A stretch of 64,000 nucleotides of DNA, taken from contig CAYPSS010000002.1 in the NCBI GenBank assembly GCA_964413735.1, positions 80,261 through 144,260 on the forward strand, in the 5' to 3' direction. The notes below the pieces were generated by a model, which was given only the letters and a program-made list of their open reading frames with translations, was not told the DNA's origin and did not search any database. Below, piece by piece: positions 5,866 through 63,900 of this stretch. The position numbers were made by a program, and so were the translations under genes. The first letter of the stretch is position 1; every line of letters starts with the position of its first letter. Source of the DNA: an uncultured Gammaproteobacteria bacterium (GTDB lineage Bacteria; Patescibacteriota; Patescibacteriia; UBA11705).

Positions 5866-5946
5866 ACCTTATATTTATTCACAAAAATCAGCTTAATCGC
5901 TGTTTTTTGTTTTTTCTTAAATTAAAATGTGTTATAATAAAAGTAT

Positions 5947-7167: not shown

Positions 7168-7187
7168 ACATTAAATCAACATTAAAT

Positions 7188-7218
7188 GCCCCAAATTTAC
7201 GTTCTGGGGCGTTTATTA
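7188..7218 (+). terminator. Intrinsic terminator after the M23 peptidase gene
   Basis: GCCCCAAATTTACGTTCTGGGGC followed by GTTTATTATT. Confidence 0.6.
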
Positions 7219-7231
7219 TTCATTAATCGAT

Positions 7232-7609
7232 ATGAATAAGGAAATTTCCTTTCCCGAATATATAACCAAAGTATTTGATTATACAGTCAAACATGTTTTT
7301 GGTTTGTCTGATTATGAATTTCGAATAATCAATCGTCGCACCGAAAACCAACGCATTTTAGGTTATATTAATTTTCGTAAAAAAATCATTGCTCTGGATA
7401 TTTATACCGCCAAAAAACGTGTGCCAAAAAAAATTAGTTCCTTATTACGAACCATTGCCCATGAAATTGCTCATATTCAGAAACCACCATATCGATCACG
7501 CTACAAAGGCCATTATATTATTCGCCAGCATTATCCGGCGTTTTATCGCCAAGTCAAGAAAAACCTTAAAATCATTCAAAAAGACCTTACTTTACGTATT
7601 TTCTTCTAA
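7232..7609 (+). CDS. Small putative zinc metallohydrolase (HExxH motif; SprT/DUF45-like)
   Basis: The only recognisable motif is TIAHEIAHIQ (HExxH) in a 125-aa basic protein. The family assignment is tentative. Confidence 0.35.
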   Translation: MNKEISFPEYITKVFDYTVKHVFGLSDYEFRIINRRTENQRILGYINFRKKIIALDIYTAKKRVPKKISSLLRTIAHEIAHIQKPPYRSRYKGHYIIRQHYPAFYRQVKKNLKIIQKDLTLRIFF

Positions 7610-8204
7610 AATTAGCCAAAAATTAACTAAAACAGCCTTAAATAAGCTGTTTTTCGGTATACAAAGCCAAAATAGGGTAAAAATATAATAAACTTTTCAA
7701 TAATGACTATAATTTAATAAATAATGAAAAGTATTAAGGAATAGAAATCAATTAAAATAAACATCAATGCTTTATATGAAATTAATCCTGCAGGAAAGCC
7801 TATTCTACCATAGGGAAGTCAGCGCTAAGCATAATTCAAGCGTCGCCAAATATATCTTTTACGACACGTAGTTATAGAGCACCAGAAACTCATTATTTCC
7901 CCTTATTTTAAGGATATTATGAATATCTAGATACCCTTGATATCAAATAACGCAATTTTGGGCCTTGTTTATTTCCCTAATTTAGGTTAAATATCAATAT
8001 AAACTCGAATTTTTTAAAAAATTAAATTTTCTACATTTTAAATCAATTTATCACAATGAATATTTTCTAATGTTAATTCCATACTCCCAACTCCCAACCA
8101 CTATTTCCTAATCCCTATTTCTAACCTTCTAATAACTTCTGTCACCCATTTTTCAACTATACCGATTTTTAAGTGTCGTAAAATATTGATAGAGCGGGGA
8201 AATA

Positions 8205-25411: not shown

Positions 25412-25822
25412 TCAATCTACCGGCATCACATGCGGTTGATTTAAGGCATCAGGACGGATCAAATACAACATCACCTTTAACTTGGGGAATTTTCCTAAGA
25501 TTTTGCATCGGGCTTGAATCAGGTCATCATGATAAACTCGAACTTCATGCGCTCGATTTTCAAACGCCTGACTACCACCATAAGCGCCACAATCCATATG
25601 CGCAAATATATGTACTTCTTTTACTCCATGCAAATTAACGGCCAATTCAACATGATGCATAGCCAAAGATGAAGTTTCATCATCAACAAAATTCTTCTGC
25701 GTTCCGGCAATTGCCAGCAAATCATAGTTATGATTTAATCCTTGAGCATTCAGAAATTGACGAAGACAAGTTTGAAAACGAAAATCCATACATGCTACGA
25801 CCAATGCCGAACAACGATGCAT
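25412..25822 (-). CDS. Mini beta-carbonic-anhydrase-like protein, paralog 1
   Basis: CMDFR at the N terminus and HMDCGAYGG about 64 aa later reproduce the beta-CA Zn-ligand and catalytic-dyad pattern (CxDxR ... HxxCG) of Cab-type enzymes. It is only 136 aa. It is paralogous to 27989..28399. Confidence 0.5.
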   Translation of the reverse strand: MHRCSALVVACMDFRFQTCLRQFLNAQGLNHNYDLLAIAGTQKNFVDDETSSLAMHHVELAVNLHGVKEVHIFAHMDCGAYGGSQAFENRAHEVRVYHDDLIQARCKILGKFPKLKVMLYLIRPDALNQPHVMPVD

Positions 25823-27988: not shown

Positions 27989-28399
27989 CTATGATTGTTT
28001 TTCAAATTCAATTTTTTCTTCATTAATCAACGCAATGTAACGATGCACTGTTAATTTAGGGAAACTACTCAAAATTTTCGCCGCCGCTGATTGTAAATCA
28101 CTTTGATATTTATTTTTTTCTTCTTCACCACCGCCCAAGATTTGATTACCACCATAAGCGCCACAATCCCAATGAGCGATTAAATACACCTCCGACATAC
28201 CATGAAGTTTTTGTGACAATTCCACTTGTTTGAGAGCGGTTGCTTGAGTTTCTTCATCTAAAAAGGTTTTTTGTGTTCCGGCGATGGAAAAAAGATCATA
28301 ATTATTTTCCAATCCCTGCTCCAATAAAAAATTCCTTACTGCGGTTTGAAAACGAAAATCCATACAACAAACCACCAAAGCCTGACAATTATGTGACAT
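27989..28399 (-). CDS. Mini beta-carbonic-anhydrase-like protein, paralog 2
   Basis: CMDFRFQ ... HWDCGAYGG. About 50% identical to 25412..25822 along the whole length. Confidence 0.5.
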   Translation of the reverse strand: MSHNCQALVVCCMDFRFQTAVRNFLLEQGLENNYDLFSIAGTQKTFLDEETQATALKQVELSQKLHGMSEVYLIAHWDCGAYGGNQILGGGEEEKNKYQSDLQSAAAKILSSFPKLTVHRYIALINEEKIEFEKQS

Positions 28400-42622: not shown

Positions 42623-43198
42623 CTATTTATGGCGCAAACTGATTTCGTACATTATTTGCTCAATCTTATTTTGATTTTTCTTCGCCTGATCAAATTTGGT
42701 GCGCAAAACACCACTTAAATTTTGTGACAATAAAAAATGAATTACCGACGCCACTTCTTCGGCAATTTGTTCCACTGATTCAAATTTTTGTTTAGTGGAA
42801 AGCAAAACCGCGCGACGTAACAACTCGCCAGTAAAATCCGATAATCCCCCCAAATATTCTTCTGGTAATACTTTCACCTCTTTTATTTCACCAACCCTTT
42901 TCCCATCCACATAAGCATAAAACAATTTAGCTTCCGCGTATTCTTCTCGAGCGGCCGACCATGCACCTTCTTTCATTAAGCTTTGTTTTTTAGCAAAATC
43001 TTTTTGTAAACGCAAAAGTATATTTTCACTTTCGACGATTTTTTCTTTGGCTTCCTTTAAATTATCACGATGCATAGCAAAAATCGCTTGTTTAGCCAAA
43101 TGCAAAGCGGAATTAGAATGATTAATAATAATACGACGTGATTTATCATTATCACCTTGCGCTAAAGCGATCTTACCCCAAAAGTTTTTATCCAACAT
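42623..43198 (-). CDS. Translin/TRAX-family protein (putative nucleic-acid-binding protein or RNase)
   Basis: An all-helical 191-aa protein. EEYLGGLSDFTGELLRRAVLL matches the translin/TRAX signature (DYLLGvADLTGELMR). Confidence 0.45.
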   Translation of the reverse strand: MLDKNFWGKIALAQGDNDKSRRIIINHSNSALHLAKQAIFAMHRDNLKEAKEKIVESENILLRLQKDFAKKQSLMKEGAWSAAREEYAEAKLFYAYVDGKRVGEIKEVKVLPEEYLGGLSDFTGELLRRAVLLSTKQKFESVEQIAEEVASVIHFLLSQNLSGVLRTKFDQAKKNQNKIEQIMYEISLRHK

Positions 43199-47429: not shown

Positions 47430-49007
47430 TTAAAATAACGGCTGACCCGTCATATAACGGGGTGGCTCAATTTCCATTAATTTTAAAATCGTGGTCGGCA
47501 CATCACTTAGCAAACCAACTGGACGCAATAAACTCAAATCATTACCAATCAACTGTGATTCAGGGTTACTTTTCCCTTGGAAATCACGCCCGATGATAAT
47601 ACAAGGAACGGGATTCGTAGAATGATCTTTACTAATTTCTCCAGTTTGCAAATTACGTAATTCCTCACAATTACCATGGTCAGCGGTAATTATACAATTC
47701 CCTCCTTTTGACAACACCAAATCAATAATTTGTCCTATACAATAATCAACGGTTTCAATGGCTTTGATTGTGGCTTTCACATCTCCGGTATGCCCAACCA
47801 TATCCGGATTGGCAAAATTCACCAAGAAAAAGTCATGTTTTTCTTGCATAATGGTTTTGGTTAATTTAGCCGTCACTTCCAAAGCCGACATTTCTGGTTT
47901 ATCAGCATAACTGGCCACTCGCGGTGAAGGAATAACATCACGATCCTCATTTTTGAACGGATTTTCCTGACCGCCATTAAAAAAGAAAGTGACATGTGCA
48001 TATTTTTCCGTTTCCGAAATATGATATTGATTCAAACCAGCTTCACTGATAACTTTGGCCAAACATAAATCAATAGTTTCTTTTTCCATCACAATATCAA
48101 CCGGCATGCCTTTTTCATATTCCGTCATAGTCACAAATTTGAGATTTTGAAACGTTTGACGCGTAAATTTTTCAAACGGCTCGGTTACAAATGCATTGGT
48201 TAATTGACGCGCACGATCTGAACGATAATTAATAAAAATCACCGCATCATTGGATTCCACTTTAGCCACCGGATTACCCGCTTGCCCAATCACTACCGGT
48301 ACAAATTCTTCATCGTAAACTTTTTTTTCATATGATTGCTCAATAGCGACTAACGGATCATCAAAATAATTTTCCGCCTCACCCAAAGCAATTGCCTTAA
48401 AAGCTTTTTCCGTTCTTTCCCAATGATTATCACGATCCATGGCATAAAATCTTCCGGACAAAGTGGCGATTTTCCCGACTTTTATTTCTTTAGTTTTCTT
48501 GATCAATTCCGCAATAAATTCTTTGCCACCATTATATAAAGTATCTCGCCCATCCAAAAAACAATGCAAATAAACTTCATCAACCTTTTGTTTTTTGGCC
48601 ATTTCCAAAATCGCATAAGCATGTCTGATTGAGGAGTGGACTTTACCCTCACTCATTAAACCGAAAATATGCATTTTGGACTTATGCTTTTTCACATGGT
48701 CGAAAGCACCAATCAATTTTTCGTTTTCAAAAAATCGACCTTCGTTAATATAACGATCAATTCGCGGTAAATTCTGAAACAAAATTTTCCCGATTCCCAA
48801 ATTCATATGTCCCACTTCCGAATTCCCGATTTCCCCCCAAGACAAGCCCACTGATTCACCTGAAGCCAATAATGTAAATGACGGGTAATGCGTCAAATAA
48901 TTATCAAAGTTTTTTTTGTTTGCCAAAGATACACCATTACTGTCGCAAGCCGGTGCCACACCCAAACCATCTAAAACAATTAATACTGTTGGTTTTTTTA
49001 CTGCCAT
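47430..49007 (-). CDS. gpmI: 2,3-bisphosphoglycerate-independent phosphoglycerate mutase, copy 1
   Basis: VLIVLDGLGVAP, NSEVGHMNLGIG, and the C-terminal ADHGN motif. Length 525 aa. Confidence 0.85.
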   Translation of the reverse strand: MAVKKPTVLIVLDGLGVAPACDSNGVSLANKKNFDNYLTHYPSFTLLASGESVGLSWGEIGNSEVGHMNLGIGKILFQNLPRIDRYINEGRFFENEKLIGAFDHVKKHKSKMHIFGLMSEGKVHSSIRHAYAILEMAKKQKVDEVYLHCFLDGRDTLYNGGKEFIAELIKKTKEIKVGKIATLSGRFYAMDRDNHWERTEKAFKAIALGEAENYFDDPLVAIEQSYEKKVYDEEFVPVVIGQAGNPVAKVESNDAVIFINYRSDRARQLTNAFVTEPFEKFTRQTFQNLKFVTMTEYEKGMPVDIVMEKETIDLCLAKVISEAGLNQYHISETEKYAHVTFFFNGGQENPFKNEDRDVIPSPRVASYADKPEMSALEVTAKLTKTIMQEKHDFFLVNFANPDMVGHTGDVKATIKAIETVDYCIGQIIDLVLSKGGNCIITADHGNCEELRNLQTGEISKDHSTNPVPCIIIGRDFQGKSNPESQLIGNDLSLLRPVGLLSDVPTTILKLMEIEPPRYMTGQPLF

Positions 49008-49014
49008 ATAATTA

Positions 49015-50610
49015 CTATTTTTTTATTAAGCTTTTTCCCACCACATGGTTTGATTTATTCGGCAATTTAAGAAAATCATAAATTGTCGGAGCAATATCTC
49101 CCAAATTACCGTTTTTTCTTAATTTAATCTTTTTGTTTTTGTTATCGATCAAAATAAACGGCACCGGATTTTGGGTATGTTCAGTAAAAATTTCTCCGGT
49201 TTCCAGATCAATCATTTTTTCCGCATTACCATGATCAGCCGTCACAAACAAAACACCATTATTTTTCAAAACTGATCGACTTATTTCCCCCAAACATTTA
49301 TCAACATGTTCTACTGCTTTAATTGTCGCTTTCAGATCCCCAGTATGCCCCACCATATCCGGATTGGCAAAATTGGCAACAATAAAATCCGCTTTTTTCT
49401 GTTCAATATTTTTACAAATATATTGTGAAATTTTATAAGCGGACATTTCCGGTTTATCTTTGTAATTTTTGATTTTCGGCGACATGATACGAACACGTTT
49501 TTCATTATAAACCGGATCCGGATAACCACCATTTAAGAAATATGTAACATGAGCATATTTTTCCGATTCCGCAATATATAGCTGACGATATGAATTCATC
49601 ATAAACGGCATAGTAGCAACCTCATCAACACCCGGATAAGCGGTAATTAAGTTTTCCGATAAATCTGGCCCAAAATCAGTTAAAGCACAGAACAAAACAT
49701 CTTTAAGAATCTTGGATCTCTTAAAAGCGGTGGGATTTTTTTTATTAAAATCTTTTTGCGAAAAGCATTTTGCCAATTGTCGAGCTCGATCAGATCGTAA
49801 ATTGAAAAAAATAATCGCATCATGATCCTTAATTCTGGAATCATCAATTTCTTCCGCTATTCCATTAATTATACACGGCTCAATGTATTCATCAGTCAAA
49901 CCACGATTATAAGCTTCTTCAATCGCTAATTTATAATTTTGATAAATCTTGATATTTTTAGTGGAAATTAAACATTCATACGCCAAACGAGTTCGATCCC
50001 AATTTTTAGCTCGATCCATGGCAAAAAATCTACCCATTAAACTCGCGACTTTAATCTTAGTAGCACCGCTTGAACCATTATTTCCATTATTTATTTTTTT
50101 CATTAAATCAACCACAATGCGCATCGCAGAATGTTGCGGGGAATCACGACCATCGGTAAACAAATGTAAATATACTTCCGATATTTTATTTAAACGAGCC
50201 AGCCTTACTAAAGCCAATAAATGATTAAGAGAACTATGAGGACTTTCACCATCAGAAATCAAACCCATTAAATGCAAACGAGATTTTTTGGCCAATAAAT
50301 GATTTACAACATGTTTAAAAGCCATGTTATTAAAAAAAGATTTATCATCAATTGCTCGGTTAATAATCACACTATCTTGGAAAACAATGTGTCCGGCTCC
50401 AATATTCATATGTCCGGCTTCCGAATTTCCCGGCTGATTTTCCGACAAACCCACCTGGCCATTACTGGCATCCAACAATGTATGCGGAAAATTTTTCCAC
50501 AGTCGATCAAAATTGGGGGTCTTGGCCAAAGCCACCGCATTACCCTGACTTGGCGGAGCAACTCCCCAACCATCCAGAATCAATAATACTGCCGGTTGAT
50601 ATTTTTTCAT
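49015..50610 (-). CDS. gpmI: 2,3-bisphosphoglycerate-independent phosphoglycerate mutase, copy 2 (divergent tandem paralog)
   Basis: VLLILDGWGVAP, NSEAGHMNIGAG, ADHGN. About 40% identical to copy 1. Confidence 0.85.
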   Translation of the reverse strand: MKKYQPAVLLILDGWGVAPPSQGNAVALAKTPNFDRLWKNFPHTLLDASNGQVGLSENQPGNSEAGHMNIGAGHIVFQDSVIINRAIDDKSFFNNMAFKHVVNHLLAKKSRLHLMGLISDGESPHSSLNHLLALVRLARLNKISEVYLHLFTDGRDSPQHSAMRIVVDLMKKINNGNNGSSGATKIKVASLMGRFFAMDRAKNWDRTRLAYECLISTKNIKIYQNYKLAIEEAYNRGLTDEYIEPCIINGIAEEIDDSRIKDHDAIIFFNLRSDRARQLAKCFSQKDFNKKNPTAFKRSKILKDVLFCALTDFGPDLSENLITAYPGVDEVATMPFMMNSYRQLYIAESEKYAHVTYFLNGGYPDPVYNEKRVRIMSPKIKNYKDKPEMSAYKISQYICKNIEQKKADFIVANFANPDMVGHTGDLKATIKAVEHVDKCLGEISRSVLKNNGVLFVTADHGNAEKMIDLETGEIFTEHTQNPVPFILIDNKNKKIKLRKNGNLGDIAPTIYDFLKLPNKSNHVVGKSLIKK

Positions 50611-53410: not shown

Positions 53411-53665
53411 TTATTCTCCTTCAATAGAAACTAATTTCCAATCCCCTCCAGCAACTTTTTCAATATTAATGTCCGCACCATTGATAATTGAATCCCGACT
53501 AAGCATTATTATGTTAAATTTCAAATTTTCTGCATCAATCGCCGCCCCATGTTCAATCACGGTTCCCAGTTCAATATTGATTTTGGTTACTTTTTTTAAT
53601 TTATTGTTTTCAGCTGATTCTAGAGCTAATTTATGAATCCGATCAGCCACATGTAAATCATGCAT
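53411..53665 (-). CDS. HypA-like [NiFe]-hydrogenase nickel-insertion protein lacking the zinc-finger segment
   Basis: MHDLHVADRIHKLALESAENNKLKKVTKINIELGTV...ENLKFNII parallels the HypA N-domain (MHE...KV..V.L.IG.LS.V..E.L.F.F). The C terminus VAGGDWKLVSIEGE parallels the HypA end (VADDGLQIRRIEIDQE). The intervening CxxC...CxxC region is absent, leaving 84 aa. Confidence 0.5.
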   Translation of the reverse strand: MHDLHVADRIHKLALESAENNKLKKVTKINIELGTVIEHGAAIDAENLKFNIIMLSRDSIINGADINIEKVAGGDWKLVSIEGE

Positions 53666-53808
53666 ATTATTATGATTTTATGAAAATATTATAGCACAAT
53701 TTATCCAATTTTATCAAAAAAATTCAAATTTATTACCATTTGACAAAATTTAATTTATATTACAAGATAAAACCAGGTTCTTTAACAATCAAACCCTAAG
53801 GAGGGAAG

Positions 53809-55680
53809 ATGATGAAAAATGCAATATCATTACTAATTGGTTTGCTCATTGCCATTAATTGTAATGAAAGCCATCCAAACAATTATTCCACTTCGAATTA
53901 TCCAACTCAATCAAAATCAGAAATTTATACTGAAAAATTAGCGGAGATTCATAGACTACAAAAAGCATTGAAAAGGAAAAAAAATCTATCTCAGTCAAAA
54001 ATTTCACAATTTCAAGAACAAATAGCTTCGGCTCGCATAGAAATTACTCAACAAATTGATCTTAATTCTAACAATAGTTACGAAAAAGCCATTAGCAATC
54101 AAATTGTCAATAACAACTTACAAGTAATTCAACGTGCTGATGCCTATATAGAAGTTTTCGAAGAAACACTTAGAAAAATCAAAGCTTCAGAAATTGAAAT
54201 CGTTCGTATAGAGAAATTTACAACAGTGGACTTAATTGCTCTTGAAGGAATTGAGAATAACAATGAATTTGATGACTTATTGAGAAAAATTAATCGCATG
54301 ATAAATGATATTCAACCAAATGCCGAAGAACTGGTCACCCCGAAAAATATAACCCCCAAAAAATCACTAAATGAAATCTGGAATAAATATTTCCATCATA
54401 CAACTCAATCAAAAACCTCGACAAAATACTCAAAAGTTCAACCTCCCGAACCAAAGATTGATTTAATCAAACAAAGACAAGTCTTATCAAATACCGATAT
54501 TTCTTCTCAATCGATTTACCCTAGTTATATCATATCGACAGGAATAATTAATTCCCCAAAGCAACTTAAATGGAATAAAAATAGTACTCATATTGCAGCG
54601 CTTTATGAAGATGGCATTTTAGTTTGGGCACCATTTAAAGAAAAAAATATCTTTATTCCGGCCGAAATGAAAACATTTGAAACTGGTAAAAATCAAAAAA
54701 TAAAGTTTTCAAAATTCAGATTAATTAATTGGAGTACGACAAACAATGATAATTTAATTGTTTTCAATAATCATGATGTGAATTTTAATATTTGGGATAT
54801 TTATTCTGGGAACAAATCAAACTCAATTCCAATAGAAGACTGCCGAATACCTGCAATAAAATTTTGGGATCAAAAATGGATTATACTACAATGCCAAGGC
54901 AATGCTAACAAAGGACTAATCTTAAAAGCTGATTCATTTCAAAAAGTTTTTAACATAAAAGGTGAAAAAGATTGGGAAAAGGCTACTTTTTTTTATGATG
55001 AGTCAAACAGACTGTTATTTAGTTATTATCACCAAAATACTATAGCAACAATAAACCCATGGATAAAAAGTGATGCCAACAATACAATCCGACTTTGTCG
55101 CAAACAAAATGAACCATTTTCAAATTCAACTGAATGGAAAAAGGACCAAGAAACAATTCAACCTTGTCCTGAACAACCCCATTTTGAATTTTCTATCACT
55201 AAAATCGATTGGATGGAATCAGGGAATTATTTGATTGCAAAAACAAATTTTGGAAAAATTTTAGTTTGGGACAATATACGAAATAGAATAATTGCTACTT
55301 ACACTGACTTTCTGAATAATTCACCACCAATCAAGTGGTCATCTATTAATAAATTGATAGCCATAATAGACTATTCCACTGTCAGATTCTTATCTTTGGA
55401 ATCAGGAAAAATAGATATTAAAATTAAAGAACCTGGAATCGTTAATTTTATTTGGCATCCGACAAAAGAGTTCTGGTATTTTGTTCAAACATGTAATGAT
55501 AATAAATGCCAATTAAAAGCAAAAAATTTGGTTCAAAACAAAGAAATAGTATTTTTGACTAACTCAAAGTCATCCACACAACAAGTTAGTACAATCACTA
55601 TTAGTAATAATCAACAACACTTAGTCGGGACATCTAATACAGGAGATATATTCGTATGGGATATTTCTATTTTACAATAA
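53809..55680 (+). CDS. Secreted or lipid-anchored protein: N-terminal coiled coil plus C-terminal WD40-like beta-propeller
   Basis: AAGGAGGG SD. Signal peptide MMKNAISLLIGLLIAINC. Recurrent WD-type blade endings (IWDIYSG, VWDNIRN, VWDISIL). Confidence 0.55.
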   Translation: MMKNAISLLIGLLIAINCNESHPNNYSTSNYPTQSKSEIYTEKLAEIHRLQKALKRKKNLSQSKISQFQEQIASARIEITQQIDLNSNNSYEKAISNQIVNNNLQVIQRADAYIEVFEETLRKIKASEIEIVRIEKFTTVDLIALEGIENNNEFDDLLRKINRMINDIQPNAEELVTPKNITPKKSLNEIWNKYFHHTTQSKTSTKYSKVQPPEPKIDLIKQRQVLSNTDISSQSIYPSYIISTGIINSPKQLKWNKNSTHIAALYEDGILVWAPFKEKNIFIPAEMKTFETGKNQKIKFSKFRLINWSTTNNDNLIVFNNHDVNFNIWDIYSGNKSNSIPIEDCRIPAIKFWDQKWIILQCQGNANKGLILKADSFQKVFNIKGEKDWEKATFFYDESNRLLFSYYHQNTIATINPWIKSDANNTIRLCRKQNEPFSNSTEWKKDQETIQPCPEQPHFEFSITKIDWMESGNYLIAKTNFGKILVWDNIRNRIIATYTDFLNNSPPIKWSSINKLIAIIDYSTVRFLSLESGKIDIKIKEPGIVNFIWHPTKEFWYFVQTCNDNKCQLKAKNLVQNKEIVFLTNSKSSTQQVSTITISNNQQHLVGTSNTGDIFVWDISILQ

Positions 55681-55809
55681 ATTCAACCGACAAAATTTGT
55701 CGGTTTTTTTATTGACATTACCAACAATTTATGCAAAAGTTATAGTGATCTTGACTGGTAAAAGGTTGACTGGGTAGCACTTTAACAATCAAACCCAAAG
55801 GAGGAAACA

Positions 55810-56631
55810 ATGAATAGAAACAAACAAATTTTTTGGGGAGTGTTTTTTGCTGGTTTGGCAGTAATTCTATTGATTGGTTTAATGAAATTCAGTAATATCC
55901 TCGCCTTCCTGATGATCCTGCCGTGGCTAGCCAACCAATTGGTAGAAAAAACCGGAATGAATATTTGGCTCGCCCGAGCCATTGCCACTATCCCCACAAT
56001 TTTGCTTCTTGTTGGTTTAAGCATGTCAATGTCATATTTCCCTGCTTTCCAGAAGGAATTCCCCTTCTTACGCTTTCAGAAAATCAAACGAATTTGGGGC
56101 TATGCTCTTTTAACCACTCTATTCATCGGTTATTCAATCACCATGTTTGCGATGGATGATGCCCAACTCTTTGATCCAAAAACCGGCCATGCTAAGAAAT
56201 GCCTTGCCTTAGGAACCACTGACTACGAAGAAATTAATTGCGATTGGGATTTTCATCCGGTAACTGGAAACCCAGTCATCAAAGATCGAGCCCAAGTTAA
56301 AGCGATTTTCACGGCCAAACAAACCTCTCCTCATGATCCCGGTCCCAGCAAAAAAATCATCAATAATGGCCAATTGCGTTTCTTTGACAGTGCCGGTAAC
56401 CCTCTAGTCTGGTACTATGAATATGAAGATGGCCGGATTGAACTTTTTGATCAACCGGGAAAACATCCTCAATGGAATACAGATTTAATCGCCATTAATC
56501 CCGCCATCGTAAAAAAGTTACTGAATTATCGTGATTCACCACAACCGGGAAATAAAATTATTTTCAACCAAACCAACAATGCCAATCCATTAATCGAATT
56601 ACGTGATTACTTACTCAAATTACATCAGTAA
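55810..56631 (+). CDS. Membrane protein (3 N-terminal TM helices) with a C-terminal soluble domain
   Basis: AAAGGAGG SD. Hydrophobic N terminus. No motif recognised. Confidence 0.5.
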   Translation: MNRNKQIFWGVFFAGLAVILLIGLMKFSNILAFLMILPWLANQLVEKTGMNIWLARAIATIPTILLLVGLSMSMSYFPAFQKEFPFLRFQKIKRIWGYALLTTLFIGYSITMFAMDDAQLFDPKTGHAKKCLALGTTDYEEINCDWDFHPVTGNPVIKDRAQVKAIFTAKQTSPHDPGPSKKIINNGQLRFFDSAGNPLVWYYEYEDGRIELFDQPGKHPQWNTDLIAINPAIVKKLLNYRDSPQPGNKIIFNQTNNANPLIELRDYLLKLHQ

Positions 56632-56677: not shown

Positions 56678-57973
56678 TTAATGCGTAGCACAACTGATAC
56701 ACGGATCATACGCCCGAATCAAAGTTTTAATCATTAATTTTTGTTTTTCATCTGACAAATTTTTTATTTGGGGTAATAATTTAACCAAATCAAACTCAAT
56801 ATTTGCCAAAAACATGGCTGTCGGCGTAATAATATTCGCATTAACCACTACTCCGTCACGATTTAATTCATAATAATGATACAAAGTTCCTCGTGGCGCT
56901 TCTATCGCCCCCACTCCTTTTCCAGGATTAGGCTTGAACTTAGTAAATAATTTCGGTTGCTTAATTTTCAAATATTTCGCCATTAGCTTTTGCGCTTCTT
57001 CAAAAGAATGAACCAATTCAACCACTTGTGCCAAGTTATTATAAAAAGAATTATAACATGGTAATTTTACCTTCAAACTATCCCAAATACCTTTTGCAAC
57101 CGGATTAAGCTGAAGATAACTATTGTTAATTCGTGCCAAAGCGCCGACCATATAAGTTCGCCCACGATGTTTCACTCGTTTAACCGCTTCACCAACCTCA
57201 TATTGTTCTTCAAAATCATAAAAATAATTATGAATCGGAATACGTTCCTTCAAATCACTGGAATACAAATTTCCGGAATAAAAAGCATATTCTCTTTTAT
57301 TTACCAAGGAAATATAATCCGTAGGATTCTCAAAGTCCGGCATGGTTGAATGTTTTTTAACGAAAGCCACTAAACGCAAAGCTTTGGGAATAATCTGTTC
57401 CAATTCATCGTACATTTTTTGTAATTCTTTTTTATCTGGTTCTACTTTGAATCCACCGACCACACTATTAATCGGATGCGTGGTCCGACCACCCACCAAA
57501 TCACCCAATCTGATTGACCAATCATGAACTTCTAGAGCTAAAGCCACTTCTTTGGGATATTTTTTTACTAAATCAAAATTATTGCTCACTCCGATAAAAT
57601 CAGGAAATGACAAAAATACCACATGCAACGCGTGACTATGAATAATTTGCGCTAAATTCAAAATTTTTCGGAGAATAATCGCGTCATCGGTTGGTACCAC
57701 ATTAAGCGCGTGTTCCAAAGCCTTGATTGCGCCTAAATTATGAACAATCGGACACACCCCACAAATTCGTGACGTGATAATTGGCACGTCATAATAACTG
57801 CGATTCAAAACAATCCCCTCCATTAATCGTGCCCCTTCCAAAGTCATCACTCGCGCACTGGCAATATCACCATTTTGCAAAGTACCTTCAAAACCCAAAT
57901 GGCCTTCAGTTTTCCCAATATGATCAATTTTAATGGTTTTCATAAGTAAATTATGGCAAATAAATAAATCCAA
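56678..57973 (-). CDS. hydA: [NiFe]-hydrogenase large (alpha) subunit, group 3-type, ending at the C-terminal His with no extension
   Basis: N-terminal Ni-Fe ligand motif RICGVCPIVH. C-terminal DPCISCATH is followed directly by the stop codon (TAA at 56678-56680). Confidence 0.85.
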   Translation of the reverse strand: MDLFICHNLLMKTIKIDHIGKTEGHLGFEGTLQNGDIASARVMTLEGARLMEGIVLNRSYYDVPIITSRICGVCPIVHNLGAIKALEHALNVVPTDDAIILRKILNLAQIIHSHALHVVFLSFPDFIGVSNNFDLVKKYPKEVALALEVHDWSIRLGDLVGGRTTHPINSVVGGFKVEPDKKELQKMYDELEQIIPKALRLVAFVKKHSTMPDFENPTDYISLVNKREYAFYSGNLYSSDLKERIPIHNYFYDFEEQYEVGEAVKRVKHRGRTYMVGALARINNSYLQLNPVAKGIWDSLKVKLPCYNSFYNNLAQVVELVHSFEEAQKLMAKYLKIKQPKLFTKFKPNPGKGVGAIEAPRGTLYHYYELNRDGVVVNANIITPTAMFLANIEFDLVKLLPQIKNLSDEKQKLMIKTLIRAYDPCISCATH

Positions 57974-59078
57974 GATCTAAATTTAATTGCTCAATTTTTT
58001 CACTAACTAATTTTTTTAATTCAGATTCCCGACACGGATAATTGGAAACTACTGTTTGCGATTGAACATCAACCGTCAATCTATCATTTACACAAGCCAG
58101 CGAATTACCAAATGAATTAATTTTATAAATTGCTTCCGCTGGCAAAGTCGAAACAATTATTTGATTCAAAATATTATTCGATAAATCATACACATATAAT
58201 GGACTGGGTCCCAATAACAAATTACCATTGTCATAAAAAATACTCTTGATATTTTTCGGCATTAAATTTCTAGGAATAATGACTTGAGTGGCTCCGGTCT
58301 CGTAATTAACAGCATAAATTTCTTCATACACATTATATTGATAATCAGGCGTTGGTTTGTGAACCCCAATGTAAACTTCTGTTGTTCCCAAAGCAATAAC
58401 CGATTCTCCATCACCCATCAACGACTCAACTTGAATAATTCTATTCACTTCATTTTCATTATTCATCCAATGCAAAATTTCTGATGCATATCCGGCATCT
58501 CCCATATAATTATGCAATACATAGCCATTATCAACCTTAGTGATATTACCGGCCGCTTGATCAGTAAGAAAAATCGGTTTTTTATTATCAACCTTCAAAT
58601 CAATATAATACATTAAATTAGGATTCATATATTCCGCCACACCGAAAAATAATTTATCACCAATAACCTTCATAAATGAAATCCCCAAATTTGCCGTCGA
58701 GTTCTTAGTGTATTTACTATCAATATCAGCTAAACTGAAAATGGTTTGTTTTTGCTTACTTTCAATATCATACGAATAAATTTCCGCATTATTACCATAA
58801 GCATCTGCCAAATATAAATTGTTTTCATGTTTAATAATATGTCCGTAATCATTATTAAAAGTATGCACGATGACTAATTCACCATGTCGGTTGTCATATA
58901 ATGTTTTGTGTTGCAAAGTAAAACTATTAAGAGTCGCTTCCTGATAAATTTGACTGTTTTTCTCTTGACCATTCAGTAACCAGGCGGAAAATAAACCAAC
59001 AAACAGTGAACAAAAAATCGCGCAAACCACCACTATAATGAAATACCGACTTTGTAAAAAAATGGAAATTTTTTTCAT
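57951..59078 (-). CDS. Membrane-anchored hypothetical protein (375 aa) inserted between the hydrogenase delta and alpha genes
   Basis: N-terminal TM helix (FIIVVVCAIFCSLFVGLFSAWLL) and a large beta-rich extracytoplasmic domain. Overlaps hydA by 23 nt, so it is translationally coupled. Confidence 0.5.
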   Translation of the reverse strand: MKKISIFLQSRYFIIVVVCAIFCSLFVGLFSAWLLNGQEKNSQIYQEATLNSFTLQHKTLYDNRHGELVIVHTFNNDYGHIIKHENNLYLADAYGNNAEIYSYDIESKQKQTIFSLADIDSKYTKNSTANLGISFMKVIGDKLFFGVAEYMNPNLMYYIDLKVDNKKPIFLTDQAAGNITKVDNGYVLHNYMGDAGYASEILHWMNNENEVNRIIQVESLMGDGESVIALGTTEVYIGVHKPTPDYQYNVYEEIYAVNYETGATQVIIPRNLMPKNIKSIFYDNGNLLLGPSPLYVYDLSNNILNQIIVSTLPAEAIYKINSFGNSLACVNDRLTVDVQSQTVVSNYPCRESELKKLVSEKIEQLNLDLGFIYLP

Positions 59079-59083
59079 ATTAT

Positions 59084-59836
59084 TTATTTATTGATAAATT
59101 CTTTAATGGCAAACATCTCCAACACCTTATTAATTTGTTTTTCATTCCAACCATTATTATTAACCGCATTTTTCCAATTAACAATTGCCGGTTTTTTTAA
59201 TAATCCACGACAACCCCAACAAGCTTGTTTACTCTTGAGACAAATTGCATTGCATCCACCTTGAATAATCGGTCCCAAACAAATTTCACCTTTTTGCAAC
59301 AAACACTCATAACCATTAGTCATACATTCAAAACAAACCGGATTTTGTTTTATTTTCGGGACTTTCCCTACCACCAAGGAATAAATAAAACGGAGAATTT
59401 CCTCCTTAATAATCGGACAGGTCGGTAAATTAAGATCAACTTTCACATATTCCGTCAAAGGTTTAATTGGCGGATTATCAAGCTTTTTATCACCGGAATA
59501 AATATGCTCCATGATTTTTTGTGAATCTTGATAATTTTTCAAATGATAAATACCGCCCAAATGAGCACAAGAGCCACAAGCCACCAAATATTTGGTATTA
59601 CTCCTGATTTTTTTTAGATTAATAATATTTTCTTTTGTTACCGGACTACCCTCCACAAAAACCACATCTAATTTTTGCTCACTAAAAAAATAATCATCTT
59701 CAAAAAGACGAAATTCCACAATATCGATTTTATCTTTTAATTCAACAAATCTTTCTCGCAAACCTAAAAGCTCCACATAGCAACCCTCACAACTGGTCAA
59801 TGAGACAAAGGCGAATTTAAGCTTTTTTTGCACCAT
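59084..59836 (-). CDS. hydD: [NiFe]-hydrogenase small (delta) subunit
   Basis: Proximal-cluster Cys pattern SLTSCEGCYVELL, ...ACGSCAHLGG..., plus further Cys clusters (CFECMTNGYEC, CLGP...GGCNAIC, CWGC). Confidence 0.8.
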   Translation of the reverse strand: MVQKKLKFAFVSLTSCEGCYVELLGLRERFVELKDKIDIVEFRLFEDDYFFSEQKLDVVFVEGSPVTKENIINLKKIRSNTKYLVACGSCAHLGGIYHLKNYQDSQKIMEHIYSGDKKLDNPPIKPLTEYVKVDLNLPTCPIIKEEILRFIYSLVVGKVPKIKQNPVCFECMTNGYECLLQKGEICLGPIIQGGCNAICLKSKQACWGCRGLLKKPAIVNWKNAVNNNGWNEKQINKVLEMFAIKEFINK

Positions 59837-60290
59837 AATTTATTAAGATATCAATTAATTGCTCCGCTTTTTGAGTGGAAATAAAATATTTTTTTTGATC
59901 ATTTTTATCAATAAACTGAATTCCTACGCCTCCCTGAGCCACAAAACCCATAACTTTATCACGACTAAACCGTAAACCATAACCGCCAAACTTCAAAAAA
60001 GAAACCTTCTGAAATTCCAACTTCTCAATATTCTTAATCCAAATTCTTTTTTTGAATAAACCGAAATTTACCAATATCTTTTGTTCATCAACTACAATCT
60101 TCAGATAGCTAAAATTAACAATCGTAAAAATTAAAATCAAACAAATTAATCCCAGCAACCAAAATGGCGGATTTTCTTCGGGTATTGACGACGGAAAAAT
60201 TAAAAGATAAATCATAAAAACCAATACAACCAGACTGATCAAAACAAAAATAAACGGGATATAAACTTTTTCTTCAAAAATATAATTCAT
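59817..60290 (-). CDS. Bacterial PH-domain (bPH_2/YdbT-like) membrane protein inserted between the hydrogenase gamma and delta genes
   Basis: Two TM helices are followed by an 80-aa soluble domain, the architecture of DUF304/bPH_2. Overlaps neighbours on both sides. Confidence 0.4.
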   Translation of the reverse strand: MNYIFEEKVYIPFIFVLISLVVLVFMIYLLIFPSSIPEENPPFWLLGLICLILIFTIVNFSYLKIVVDEQKILVNFGLFKKRIWIKNIEKLEFQKVSFLKFGGYGLRFSRDKVMGFVAQGGVGIQFIDKNDQKKYFISTQKAEQLIDILINYGAKKA

Positions 60291-61102
60291 ATATCAATAT
60301 GTTCTTTACCAAATTTCTTTAATTGTTCATGTGTGAAAACCGGGCCATCCGTGCAAGTATAAACCGGACCGCAAACACAATGCTGACACTGACCGGTACC
60401 GCAATACATTCGTCGTTCCAAAGAAAAATATATTTTATCTGACGAAATGCCACGTTCATTCAAAACCTTGGCCACAAATTTATACATTGGTTCAGGTCCG
60501 CAACAAAACACCATCGCATTAGGCAATAATTTCACCTTAACCAATAAATCGGTTATATATCCCTGAGAGTTTGCTAATACCTGATGGTTACCTTGTTCTA
60601 ATACCAAATATGTTTCACTTTTTTTCTGCCACTTAGGCCAATTGTTTCCAAAAACCATAGTTTCTTGGCTTTTACAACCCATGAATATTTGCATTTTAAC
60701 ATCTGCTCGATCAATATTTTGCTCAATTACTGATTTCAATGGAATAAAGCCACACCCTCCACCAACAATAATCACATTACCATTTACTTCCGGAAAACCA
60801 TTACCAAAAGGACCTCTAATATAAAGGCTATCACCTTTTTTCAAAGAATTAATTTTTTCTGACAATTCTCCGGCCGTTCGCACACAAATTTCAAAGTAAT
60901 CTTGACTTTTCCCGGCGGCTGAAGACAAAGTAAAGGGAGCATCACCATAACCCGGCAAACCAACCATCAAAAACTGACCGGCAATAAAATGAAAATCTTT
61001 TTGAATTTTAGTATCAAATTTCAAACGAAAACAATTTATCAAATCATTTTCTTTTTTCACGCTTATGATTATCGCCTTTTGAGGCAAAAAACTGTTTTTC
61101 AT
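60287..61102 (-). CDS. hydG: Hydrogenase gamma subunit (FAD/NAD(P)-binding oxidoreductase with a C-terminal 2Fe-2S, PyrK-like)
   Basis: FNR-like fold motifs (FHFIAGQFLMV, RGPFGNGF, IIVGGGCGFIPLKSV). C-terminal Cys cluster CGTGQCQHCVC. Confidence 0.75.
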   Translation of the reverse strand: MKNSFLPQKAIIISVKKENDLINCFRLKFDTKIQKDFHFIAGQFLMVGLPGYGDAPFTLSSAAGKSQDYFEICVRTAGELSEKINSLKKGDSLYIRGPFGNGFPEVNGNVIIVGGGCGFIPLKSVIEQNIDRADVKMQIFMGCKSQETMVFGNNWPKWQKKSETYLVLEQGNHQVLANSQGYITDLLVKVKLLPNAMVFCCGPEPMYKFVAKVLNERGISSDKIYFSLERRMYCGTGQCQHCVCGPVYTCTDGPVFTHEQLKKFGKEHIDI

Positions 61103-61167
61103 AACGGATCATGTGTCATATTACATTTAACATGTTTCATATTCGGTCAAGCATCGTTAAACTATAT

Positions 61168-61524
61168 TTAATAAATACCATAAGACAATTCTTTGATGCA
61201 GGATTTAGTTGAATAATGGATATATTCTTTTGTAGAATATTTTCCTCCTCGCAAAAAACAAACAAATCTATTTGTAATTTTACAAAAAGATGCCTCAACT
61301 CCAATCCCCACTAACTTATTTTCAATTTCTCCTCCGACCAGAAAACAAGCCGGTTGGAAATTAAACCTATTATTATATAAAATTTTTGGATCAGGCGTTG
61401 GGTCAATCGAAATAAAATCACCCGTTTGTAAATCAATAAAACATGGAGAAAGTATTACTAAGGATAAATAAGATATAAACAACACAAAAAGAGCAATTAT
61501 TACGATCTTCTTATTTCTTTTCAT
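61168..61524 (-). CDS. Small membrane-anchored hypothetical protein inserted between the hydrogenase beta and gamma genes
   Basis: Signal/TM segment KIVIIALFVLFISYLSLVIL, then a 90-aa Cys-containing domain. Confidence 0.4.
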   Translation of the reverse strand: MKRNKKIVIIALFVLFISYLSLVILSPCFIDLQTGDFISIDPTPDPKILYNNRFNFQPACFLVGGEIENKLVGIGVEASFCKITNRFVCFLRGGKYSTKEYIHYSTKSCIKELSYGIY

Positions 61525-62500
61525 ATTTTTTAATTAAATCTTGCAAATTCTTAGCAATATTTATTCCAACCGGACAAACTTTAAAACAACGCATACAACT
61601 GACACACCCGGGGAAATTAAATTCCTCGGGAATTCGAACAAATTTATGATAATACCAAAAATAAATTTTCTTTTTTATCGTATCAAGCGGTTCATGACCA
61701 CCGGCCATTTCGGAAAAATCATTATAAAAGCATGAAGACCATTGCCTTTGACGAACAATCTTATCTTTTTGCGGAATATCAATTGTATCAAAACAAAAAC
61801 AAGTAGGACAAGCCATAGTACAACGACCGCAAGCAATGCATTTGGCATTCAATTCATCCCAAATTTCTTTGGAAAAACTATCTTTTACCCGTTGATAAAA
61901 ATCTCTTAACCTTAACGGTTGGCCCTTTTCCGGCACATAACCCACAAATTCAATATGCTCATAATCCAAAATATTATTATCTTCCAAAATATTTTGGCCC
62001 TTTTCCGACCCGGAGAAAACATTAAACTTACCGTTTTTTTGTCGTTCTATGAAAATATCAAAACTCCGATGTTCCAAAATATCTTCTTCAAATTTCTCAT
62101 GCCAAATTTTATATTTACGAAAATCATTCTCAATCCCATTACTGTAACCCACAACCAATAAATTACGACGGCGACGCAAATAGTATGAATCTTTGGCAAA
62201 AACTTGCTCAAACAAACTAAATGCTTCCAAATCCATAATATTCATACCCCAAGCTGTTATCAACTGATTTCCTTGAATAATTTCTTTTGCTTTACCCTGA
62301 TTATCAAATTCAACCAAATTTTCACGAACAGGTAAAAATAAATTTTTAAATGTATTTTCCGGCACCACACCGGACCAATCGATTTTCTGCAAATTATCCA
62401 CCGCAGAAACTAAAAGCCGGCCATTGTTTTTAACCGGTGCATAAATAATTGATTTCTCAAACAAATTATCTAATAGATTTTTTAATTCTACTTGTTTCAT
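61511..62500 (-). CDS. hydB: Hydrogenase beta subunit (4Fe-4S ferredoxin-type)
   Basis: Two Fe-S Cys motifs: CIACGRCTMACPTCFCFDT and CVSCMRCFKVCPVG. Confidence 0.75.
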   Translation of the reverse strand: MKQVELKNLLDNLFEKSIIYAPVKNNGRLLVSAVDNLQKIDWSGVVPENTFKNLFLPVRENLVEFDNQGKAKEIIQGNQLITAWGMNIMDLEAFSLFEQVFAKDSYYLRRRRNLLVVGYSNGIENDFRKYKIWHEKFEEDILEHRSFDIFIERQKNGKFNVFSGSEKGQNILEDNNILDYEHIEFVGYVPEKGQPLRLRDFYQRVKDSFSKEIWDELNAKCIACGRCTMACPTCFCFDTIDIPQKDKIVRQRQWSSCFYNDFSEMAGGHEPLDTIKKKIYFWYYHKFVRIPEEFNFPGCVSCMRCFKVCPVGINIAKNLQDLIKKYEKK

Positions 62501-62870: not shown

Positions 62871-63353
62871 TCAATCAATCATTGGTTTTCCGAATTGCGA
62901 CTGGCATTCAACCGAATAAGGCACCCAAAAACTTAATTTCATTTCTTGTCGATTCTCACTTCTTTTTTTGAATATTCTTTTTATTTTATGAAGATTAGCA
63001 TCCACCAAGCATTTTCGACAATTTGGATCAAGATTGACAATATCAATTTCAATTCGAACATCAGTCGCTAAACACTCCGATTTTTCACTACACCATCCAC
63101 CGCTGCAACTTCTAGCCGTAAAATAAACAGCACAATATTCTTCAGCTCTTGCTTTAGCTATAGCTTCCATACAAATATATACTTTTTTCGAGAAAGTTTT
63201 TATTTCACCTGGCACACAATAATCAGATGAATCATTGGTAATTTTTTGTTTTTTTTCTGAAGGAACAATGACCGTGGCACACGATACAAAAGCCACTAAA
63301 CAACAAAGGAAAAAAGCTACACGAGACATTCGCACCCTCCGATGAGAGTCCAA
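62871..63353 (-). CDS. Secreted or lipoprotein Cys-rich small protein, tandem paralog 1
   Basis: Signal peptide with lipobox-like FVSC. 12 Cys. The C-terminal motif REMKLSFWVP is shared with the paralog. Confidence 0.5.
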   Translation of the reverse strand: MDSHRRVRMSRVAFFLCCLVAFVSCATVIVPSEKKQKITNDSSDYCVPGEIKTFSKKVYICMEAIAKARAEEYCAVYFTARSCSGGWCSEKSECLATDVRIEIDIVNLDPNCRKCLVDANLHKIKRIFKKRSENRQEMKLSFWVPYSVECQSQFGKPMID

Positions 63354-63441: not shown

Positions 63442-63900
63442 TCACTTGTTCACCTTTTCCAATCCCCAATACTGATCCTGACACTGTTTTTTAATCAATG
63501 GCACCCAAAAACTCATTTTCATTTCACGACCCAAATAATGCATTTTGTTTAGCATTAAAAATAACAACATTTGGTCTTGCTGATCCAAACAATCAGGGCA
63601 AGGAGGTTCCCAAGAAACAATTATCGGACGCTGACGTGTCAACTTCAAAGCACAAGTAAAAATCGGAAAACATTGATCACCCAAACAACTTTGTTTCACT
63701 GATAAAATCTCACAATACTCTTCATTAATCATTTTTCCCAAAACAACCATGCAAAAACACTCGTGATCATTGATTTTCTTTGTTTCTCCTAATTCACACA
63801 ACAAATCAAGATGCTCCGGCTGTGATGTTTTCTTGTCCAAAACATCGGTAGACGCACAACCGAAAATGATTACCCCAAAAACTATAATAATCCGAGTCAT
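63442..63900 (-). CDS. Secreted or lipoprotein Cys-rich small protein, tandem paralog 2
   Basis: Signal peptide with IIFGC. Cys-rich. The C terminus has REMKMSFWVPL. Confidence 0.5.
   Translation of the reverse strand: MTRIIIVFGVIIFGCASTDVLDKKTSQPEHLDLLCELGETKKINDHECFCMVVLGKMINEEYCEILSVKQSCLGDQCFPIFTCALKLTRQRPIIVSWEPPCPDCLDQQDQMLLFLMLNKMHYLGREMKMSFWVPLIKKQCQDQYWGLEKVNK

Follow-up and report, generated by a model that had tools for sequence, protein, structure and literature searches.

The window considered here is a stretch of 64,000 nt (contig CAYPSS010000002.1, positions 80,261 to 144,260) from a genome placed by GTDB in Patescibacteriota. Its minus strand carries the gene cluster (56678-62500) of a group 3b [NiFe]-hydrogenase, with four subunits (beta, gamma, delta and alpha) recognised by Pfam, and, downstream of it, an open reading frame (ORF) of 84 codons with an ATG start. 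The product of this ORF, MHDLHVADRIHKLALESAENNKLKKVTKINIELGTVIEHGAAIDAENLKFNIIMLSRDSIINGADINIEKVAGGDWKLVSIEGE, contains no Cys and is a homologue of HypA that consists of the Ni-binding domain alone; the gene is referred to below as short hypA, and the coordinates of all features are collected in Table 1. It belongs to a conserved family whose genes lie, with few exceptions, near the gene of the hydrogenase large subunit. Judging from sequence comparison, the short HypA is quite probably the nickel metallochaperone of the neighbouring enzyme.

The Pfam profile PF01155 (HypA) matches the 84-aa protein with 35.1 bits (E 1.4e-8; the gathering score is 28.9), residues 1-72 being aligned with profile positions 1-68 of 112 and the remainder being unmatched. 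This is the profile check that the original prediction had proposed; the gathering score is passed, and the alignment ends at position 68 of the profile. A profile built from the family finds, in turn, Thermococcus kodakarensis HypA (3A43) with E 4.4e-11 over residues 1-69. In the alignment with HypA of Escherichia coli (taken from NC_000913), T. kodakarensis and Helicobacter pylori, the family lacks exactly the segment that contains both CxxC motifs, approximately residues 66-101 of E. coli HypA, and the C-terminal strand WKLVSIEGE pairs with the canonical LQIRRIEIDQE.

The AlphaFold2 (AF2) model computed from 56 family members has a predicted local distance difference test (pLDDT) score of 86.9 and consists, according to DSSP, of helix 2-20, strand 26-33, helix 45-55 and strands 65-70 and 77-83. 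The best 14 Foldseek matches in PDB are HypA every one, with a template-modelling (TM) score on the query of 0.65-0.78, or 0.70-0.78 save one nuclear magnetic resonance model. The alignment, the model and Foldseek agree that the alpha/beta Ni-binding domain is present together with its closing C-terminal strand; at the place of the canonical CxxC...CxxC the model has a 6-residue turn. The original prediction had claimed an MH(D/E) start (MHD in the window protein), a HypA N-domain, a retained C-terminal strand and a clean absence of the zinc segment, and all of these stand. The protein is, by its sequence, a HypA homologue, but not a full-length equivalog: the zinc site, one of the features that define HypA, is absent, and the score stays under the curated equivalog threshold. 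It should be filed as a distinct Ni-domain-only subfamily apart from ordinary HypA.

The loss of the zinc segment is thus real, but the picture of a bare deletion that came with it is not, since a 4-residue loop with Glu38-His39 and also His5 have been gained. Compared with every canonical HypA aligned (E. coli, T. kodakarensis and H. pylori), the loop between beta1 and alpha2 contains a 4-residue insertion which in most members carries Glu38-His39-Gly40; Glu38-His39 stand immediately before the position aligned to H. pylori Asp40, in the same loop. The family also differs in its third residue, which is Asp where canonical HypA has Glu, and in a His at position 5 of the first helix; more distant members have different loops, rich in His and acidic residues, at the insertion site.

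The family is not small. A search of 5.8 billion proteins gave 82 clusters (84-86 aa nearly throughout), an exhaustive search of 1.84 billion representatives gave 60 matches (79-91 aa nearly throughout), and a scan of GTDB species representatives found short hypA in 78 genomes. The pooled unique full-length members number 191, have a length of about 84-86 aa and come from assemblies in NCBI, JGI, ENA and Logan. Met1 and His2 are invariant among them (100% each), as is Gly34 (100%); the other conserved positions are Asp3 (99%, Glu in 1%), His5 (88%), Ala7 (98%), Glu38 (92%), His39 (98%), Gly40 (84%), Asn47 (98%) and Asn51 (95%). Any CxxC is found in 1 of the 191. Compared pairwise, closer members show ratios of nonsynonymous to synonymous substitution rates (dN/dS) of 0.007-0.15 (median 0.08), and the family is under strong purifying selection. 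All informatively named carriers, without exception, are Patescibacteria (Falkow-, Buchanan-, Kuenen-, Komeili- and Uhrbacteria and the "Parcubacteria group"); on this sequence evidence, the zinc-less HypA clade of Patescibacteria is large, old and diversified. Many co-assembly or metagenome-assembled genome records (e.g., L010, L011, L017, L028 and L068) are labelled "uncultured Gammaproteobacteria" or "Saccharibacteria"; they show Patescibacteria-type synteny and chromosomes of 0.9-1.1 Mb, and these labels are probably placeholders or wrong.

For the analysis of gene neighbourhoods, about 10 kb on either side of hypA was taken in 86 loci, which together with the window makes 87 sequences. 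The large-subunit gene is located upstream on the same strand in 83 of the 87 (74 of the 78 GTDB loci), and its distance to hypA is <=100 nt in 39 of 82 loci and <=20 nt in 25; the link to a [NiFe]-hydrogenase assumed in the original prediction is thus confirmed. In three of the exceptions (L013, L066 and L083) hypA lies within ~900 nt of the contig end, with no upstream room for a large-subunit gene. The fourth, in locus L085, is the sole hypA copy without a nearby hydrogenase; unrelated sequence stands where the C-terminal strand should be, and the copy looks like a decaying orphan. Its neighbours are the genes of a TypA-like GTPase, ArgRS and alanine racemase.

The gene order in relatives is large subunit, short hypA and then pgk-eno-iPGM-iPGM-fpg-bacA, which the window order matches; its pair of tandem iPGM paralogues is also conserved in relatives. 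The large-subunit gene of the window ends 3012 nt from the start of hypA, in agreement with the distance of about 3 kb reported before. Since hypA directly follows the large-subunit gene in relatives or is found a short way from it, this separation is, on comparison of the loci, secondary and due to the insertion of two plus-strand genes, for a WD40 protein and a membrane protein (53809..56631, 2.8 kb). The insert is shared with the closely related contig L088; neither gene occurs in the Pfam-annotated gene tables of six relatives. A promoter-like element (a pattern match only) is located upstream of hypA and ends 23 nt before its ATG, which fits a gene that needs a promoter of its own once split from the operon. 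Neither a tRNA nor a known RNA turned up in the 339-nt gap between hypA and pgk. In two other loci, L007 and L080, a gene of a CNNM/CBS/CorC-type divalent-metal transporter is found between the large subunit and hypA.

The cluster of the window is assigned to group 3b on sequence. The best PDB matches of its large subunit are sulfhydrogenase I alpha and HyhL (5YXY_A), with E ~1e-64 and an alignment that runs to the final His; the protein has both the L1 and the L2 Cys motif, contains RICGVCPIVH and ends in ...DPCISCATH without an extension. The same holds for the partner large subunits in general: all 73 distinct sequences carry RxCGxCxxxH and have a C-terminus that is exactly CxxCxxH. By these motifs the partner enzyme looks competent to bind Ni, and no protease step would be needed because the large subunits end exactly at the His of CxxCxxH.

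Among known systems, CooT, the small Ni chaperone of carbon monoxide dehydrogenase, is likewise a tiny single-domain Ni accessory protein that uses residue 2; it differs from the short HypA in its unrelated fold, its Cys2-based site and its client enzyme, and the Pfam and Foldseek results for the short HypA contain no sequence or fold match to it. The best match in both sequence and structure is T. kodakarensis HypA (TkHypA; 3A43, 3A44, 5AUN with HypB, 5YXY and 5YY0 with HyhL), with a Foldseek TM-score on the query of 0.70-0.75, a root-mean-square deviation of ~1.4 A and the Met-His start common to both. Its client HyhL, which was crystallised with HypA, belongs to the group 3b large subunits and is, among solved structures, the nearest to the window large subunit. 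TkHypA has 139 aa, a CxxC...CxxC zinc domain and His98, which is a ligand only when the ATPase-type HypB is bound (PMC7055735); the short HypA, unlike it, has no zinc domain, MHD for MHE, His5 and the 4-residue Glu-His-Gly insertion. Immature HyhL has a short C-terminal extension (428- versus 424-residue chain), whereas the large subunits of these Patescibacteria, or candidate phyla radiation (CPR), have none. H. pylori HypA (6G81, 2KDX) and E. coli HypA/HybF share the Ni-domain fold; with 6G81 the TM-score on the query is 0.78, the zinc domain being spanned as a gap, and the Asp40 loop of H. pylori is the loop that bears Glu38-His39 in the window protein. These proteins, in contrast to the short HypA, have 113-117 aa, a Zn(Cys)4 site with a structural or regulatory role, where mutation of the Cys residues impairs the maturation of hydrogenase and urease (PMC7055735), a GTPase HypB partner encoded beside hypA, and no His-bearing loop insertion.

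The published work on HypA gives the frame for the Ni site. Ni has the N-terminal amine and His2 as ligands, and in H. pylori the side chains of Glu3 and of Asp40 in the beta1-alpha2 loop were suggested as the remaining ligands; the nanomolar site of T. kodakarensis HypA is found only in the complex with HypB, where His98 joins Met1 and His2 (PMC7055735). When HyhL and HypA form a complex, their Ni sites are turned towards one another, and HypA is touched by the large subunit's N-terminal tail (PMC7055735, PMC12134894). A 2025 review describes HypA as a nickel-binding plus a zinc-binding domain (PMC12134894), and in reviews and primary papers the CxxC zinc site is also credited with stabilising the protein. 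In the literature we searched, nothing was found on zinc-less HypA or on hyp genes of the CPR. Databases already call some members "HypA" (the IMG label is "Zn finger protein HypA/HybF"), so the family assignment is not new; what appears to be new, against the literature searched, is a conserved HypA family free of the zinc domain and with a His loop.

A second zinc-less group (P0131, P0157 and P0158; three clusters only, on short contigs) offers a comparison. It resembles the Patescibacteria family in the boundaries of the zinc-domain deletion, the length of ~80 aa and the tail (ILESIEGE), and differs from it in keeping MHE and the canonical loop without the His insertion. Its members are 48-56% identical to full-length CxxC-bearing HypAs and, by their sequences, look like recent, isolated events. 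A true HypB is encoded 1-4 nt downstream of P0131 and P0157, in both contigs with a readable context; these HypBs are closest to Gammaproteobacteria-labelled proteins among the best 120 of 8000 matches. A full-length, CxxC-bearing relative (P0159 in locus L092) has the zinc domain and no His loop, and its locus contains HypB, HycI and a 3b large subunit with a 10-residue extension. The Patescibacteria family (86 loci and the window) has the His loop and no zinc domain, with HypB in 0 of 87 neighbourhoods, an extension in 0 of 73 large subunits and no HycI seen. The correlation of the loop with the absence of HypB and of the extension is suggestive; the comparison loci are few, and what was compared are neighbourhoods, not whole genomes.

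As to the other maturation genes, the window contains no hypB, C, D, E, F or hycI according to Pfam (ORFs >=90 aa) and to phmmer and motif scans (ORFs >=40 aa). The original prediction was right in this for the window, but not as a generality, since relatives have HypC, DUF6390, HypF, HypD/E or HydE/HydG. On the related contig, no hyp genes are found beyond the cluster, just a heavy-metal P-type ATPase, an HMA/DsbD protein, an IMS-family polymerase and LexA. Searches of the 87 neighbourhoods with E. coli HypB and two lineage-proximal HypBs gave zero matches at E<=10, and no ORF with a MinD/Mrp-type deviant Walker A P-loop is present there; nor was a HycI-like gene seen in the family neighbourhoods. 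HypF occurs in 7 loci, and HypC, D and E with a short HypF in 2; these two, L080 and L086, have the four genes beside the hydrogenase, yet their neighbourhoods are free of HypB. The sole accessory gene that is universal for this hydrogenase across the loci is short hypA. A zinc ribbon encoded as a separate small ORF was also considered and rejected: CxxC...CxxC segments were found in just 7 of the 87 neighbourhoods, all of them Fe-S motifs of the small subunit or antisense or short segments.

Two observations concern these accessory genes themselves. The short HypF (375-401 aa) has the Kae1-like C-terminal domains only, without the acylphosphatase, zinc-finger and YrdC parts; a full HypF of 729 aa is found in L001, L056 and L068. 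In 37 loci, HypC is followed, between the gamma and small-subunit genes, by DUF6390 (PF19927, ~250 aa, no NCBIfam match), whose C-terminus is weakly HypC-like (E 3e-4); it may be an uncharacterised maturation factor.

We believe that the observations as a whole are best explained if the short HypA acts as a Ni chaperone that consists of nothing but the Ni domain and has additional ligands built in (we put the probability at about 0.65). At the N-terminus, the amine of Met1 together with the amide and the imidazole of His2 would hold Ni(II), which is the arrangement in every HypA studied; Asp3, His5 and, above all, His39 with Glu38 in the loop insertion beside the N-terminus may complete the coordination. 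We propose that the additional ligands are carried permanently in the Ni domain because His39 and Glu38 sit in the loop of the H. pylori ligand Asp40; for His39 itself the chances of being a Ni ligand seem about even. Once loaded, the protein would bind the immature large subunit at its N-terminal region, in the manner of TkHypA and HyhL, and the Ni would be handed over to the CxxC pairs of the large subunit; no protease step would follow, the large subunits being made without a C-terminal extension. The built-in His39 may replace His98 of TkHypA, which depends on HypB there, and this would give a HypB-independent chaperone that takes up Ni with no switch induced by HypB; such independence we suggest only tentatively, the odds being somewhat against it. 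The wording "minimal Ni-delivery protein" of the original prediction is a reasonable inference.

A bolder form of the proposal is a self-sufficient, HypB-free Ni insertase, in which His39 with Glu38 and His5 would make a permanent high-affinity site as a part of a rewired minimal pathway of Patescibacteria (no zinc domain, HypB, extension or protease; in some lineages the Fe(CO)(CN) unit would come from HydE/HydG fused to or adjoining HypC, not from HypD, E and F); we consider it unlikely. It is somewhat easier to imagine, while still on the unlikely side, that the protein is a Ni chaperone in the ordinary HypA-HypB cycle with HypB encoded elsewhere, the zinc domain being dispensable for docking and the His loop serving, e.g., large-subunit specificity. 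P0131 and P0157, zinc-less and yet directly followed by a true HypB, agree with this, as they demonstrate that the loss of the finger is compatible with HypB; furthermore, hyp genes are scattered in these genomes, and the search for HypB covered neighbourhoods. On the other side, neither type of HypB is found in the 87 neighbourhoods, including the two hypCDEF clusters, while in the relatives examined the hypA and hypB genes lie side by side or overlap; and the near-invariant extra His39 is located at a place that would call for a fourth ligand. The protein could also donate no metal at all and be an assembly or holding factor that attaches to the immature large subunit at its N-terminal tail and, in lieu of the gating extension, prevents the active site from closing, with Ni arriving by another route. 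The extension is indeed absent from all partner large subunits, the tail contacts HypA in the HyhL-HypA complex (PMC7055735, PMC12134894), and high Ni can bypass HypA and HypB in laboratory strains (PMC12134894). We nevertheless find this improbable: a conserved Met1-His2 (100%) and His39 (98%) are to be expected of a metal site, and pure docking does not need them. Other extension-less hydrogenases are known to mature with ordinary Hyp proteins, which also counts against a holding factor.

Highly improbable, in our opinion, is metal handling for another client, e.g., the phosphoglycerate mutases, which depend on Mn/Co and whose genes come just downstream along with pgk and eno, the adjacency to the hydrogenase being a mere conserved gene order. 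It is true that pgk follows hypA in 64 of the 87 sequences and that two iPGM paralogues of a metalloenzyme superfamily are conserved downstream. The linkage to the large subunit, though, is the tighter one, with 83 of the 84 sequences that could be assessed; pgk-less loci such as L001, L012, L027 and L039 still have hypA beside the large subunit, the copy without a hydrogenase (L085) is degenerate, and the homology points to a Ni chaperone specific for hydrogenase and urease. The original prediction had itself named an in-frame deletion collapsed in assembly as an alternative; this artefact, or a functionless decaying remnant of hypA (a pseudogene), has a practically negligible chance. The orphan of L085 is clearly degenerate and the score of the window protein is under the NCBIfam equivalog cutoff, but the same length (84-86 aa) recurs in independent assemblies under strong purifying selection, with 191 unique sequences, 78 species genomes, dN/dS of 0.007-0.15 and a confident compact model, and both are therefore ruled out.

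Several points weigh against the view that the short HypA is the Ni chaperone with built-in ligands, and they should be stated together. The NCBIfam equivalog TIGR00100 (hypA) gives 40.9 bits, well under the cutoff of 88.1. The loop that bears the candidate ligands is the weakest part of the AF2 model (mean pLDDT 72 for residues 31-40), and the contrast with the loop-less zinc-less group comes from two contigs only. The absence of HypB refers to flanks of ~10 kb, not whole genomes, and as hyp genes are scattered, HypB could lie elsewhere. The window itself has no HypC, D, E or F. Finally, Cys mutants of H. pylori HypA lose hydrogenase activity (PMC7055735), and a 2026 paper in the Journal of Biological Chemistry describes the CxxC zinc site as essential for the interaction of HypA with its partners; because the canonical zinc site matters, the loss of the domain could mean a changed function.

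A separate observation may concern the Fe ligands of the [NiFe] site. HypC and HydE, a radical-SAM maturase of the [FeFe] type, form a fusion protein inside the group 3b [NiFe] cluster of 8 Patescibacteria loci and also of the canonical relative L092; with the NCBIfam HydE equivalog TIGR03956 this protein reaches 284.8 bits (cutoff 254.6). HydG follows in most of the fusion loci, and L059 encodes HypC, HydE and HydG as one polypeptide (HydG 630.8 bits, cutoff 312). No HypD, E or F was found within 10 kb of the fusion loci. These HypC-HydE(-HydG) proteins may supply the [NiFe] site with its Fe(CO)(CN) ligands by a different path. A search for such fusions gave nothing relevant in the literature searched; if borne out, they could outweigh the finding of the short HypA.

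Other observations are listed for completeness. Three ORFs without a Pfam match are interleaved with the subunit genes of the window and have hydrophobic N-termini; those of 157 and 375 aa recur in L088, and L002 has an ORF of 156 aa in the same slot. Just upstream of the cluster are two paralogous Cys-rich proteins of ~150-160 aa, and in L088 such a pair is preceded by a heavy-metal P-type ATPase with an HMA domain and by an HMA+DsbD_2 protein. The window also encodes a Translin-family protein in a bacterial genome; this family is known mainly from eukaryotes and archaea. Two paralogous 136-aa genes of a "putative carbonic anhydrase" flank a sensor histidine kinase with a periplasmic solute-binding domain. 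In L002 and L003, a Patescibacteria-type contig contains the end of a 908-aa gene that matches domains of the major vault protein.

Table 1. Coordinates of the features in the window (plain positions) and in other loci (locus:positions)
Feature	Coordinates	Strand	Basis or remark
Short hypA, HypA homologue consisting of the Ni-binding domain alone	53411..53665	(-)	ORF, Pfam, AF2, Foldseek
Met1-His2-Asp3-Leu4-His5 codons: N-terminal Ni-binding motif and family-specific His5	53651..53665	(-)	conservation, 191 members
Glu38-His39-Gly40 codons in the 4-residue loop insertion, candidate extra Ni ligands	53546..53554	(-)	alignments; putative ligand role
Codons of residues 71-76 (VAGGDW): turn joining beta2 and beta3 at the canonical zinc-domain site	53438..53455	(-)	alignment and DSSP
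Sigma-70-like promoter TTGATA-18-TATAAT, TG extended -10	53688..53717	(-)	pattern match only, 11/12 consensus
WD40 beta-propeller protein, between hypA and large-subunit gene	53809-55680	(+)	Pfam
273-aa membrane protein, no family, between hypA and large-subunit gene	55810-56631	(+)	ORF, Pfam scan
Group 3b [NiFe] large subunit	56678..57943	(-)	421 aa from ATG 57943; ORF extends to TTG 57973; contig L088 also 421 aa
Hydrogenase small subunit (delta)	59084..59836	(-)	PF01058 Oxidored_q6, E 9.5e-22
Hydrogenase gamma subunit (FAD/NAD-binding, Fe-S)	60287..61102	(-)	PF00175, PF10418, PF00970
Hydrogenase beta subunit (4Fe-4S dicluster)	61511..62500	(-)	PF17179 Fer4_22, E 3e-28
Interleaved ORFs	57951-59078; 59817-60290; 61168-61524	(-)	375 aa; 157 aa; 118 aa
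Cys-rich paralogues	62871-63353; 63442-63900	(-)
Tandem iPGM paralogues	47430-49007; 49015-50610	(-)
Translin-family protein	42623-43198	(-)	PF01997, E 6.7e-17
"Putative carbonic anhydrase" paralogues	25412-25822; 27989-28399	(-)	Pro_CA_2
hypA without nearby hydrogenase	L085:5446-5736
CNNM/CBS/CorC-type transporter	L007:6137-7357; L080:8748-10001
Short HypF	L080:1436-2563; L086:6323-7528		beside hypC, hypD, hypE
DUF6390, examples	L004:3527-4267; L006:4158-4916; L008:3794-4561		PF19927
HypC-HydE loci, paired ORFs	L026:4550-5821, 5835-7205; L048:3569-4852, 4857-6227; L049:4654-5913, 5918-7285; L064:5284-6546, 6551-7792
HypC-HydE loci, single ORF	L059:1051-3696; L062:4538-5821; L022:12-1163; L033:6-1534; L092:9124-10407
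Cys-rich pair with HMA-domain ATPase and HMA+DsbD_2 protein	L088:4078-7553
End of gene matching major vault protein	L002:1-753; L003:1-753		PF17795 Vault_3, PF11978 MVP_shoulder

While the zinc site of HypA is described as essential, the short HypA family appears to be a pared-down form of the protein that occurs in nature without it, and the family offers a ready natural test of the parts that the zinc domain and HypB play in the affinity for Ni and in its delivery. An annotation error is exposed as well, the zinc-less proteins being labelled as a Zn finger protein in IMG. The 84-residue protein is a candidate accessory protein for the heterologous production of protease-independent group 3b hydrogenases. 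For the organisms themselves, the finding bears on whether the hydrogenases invoked in the fermentation of Patescibacteria truly mature in very small genomes.

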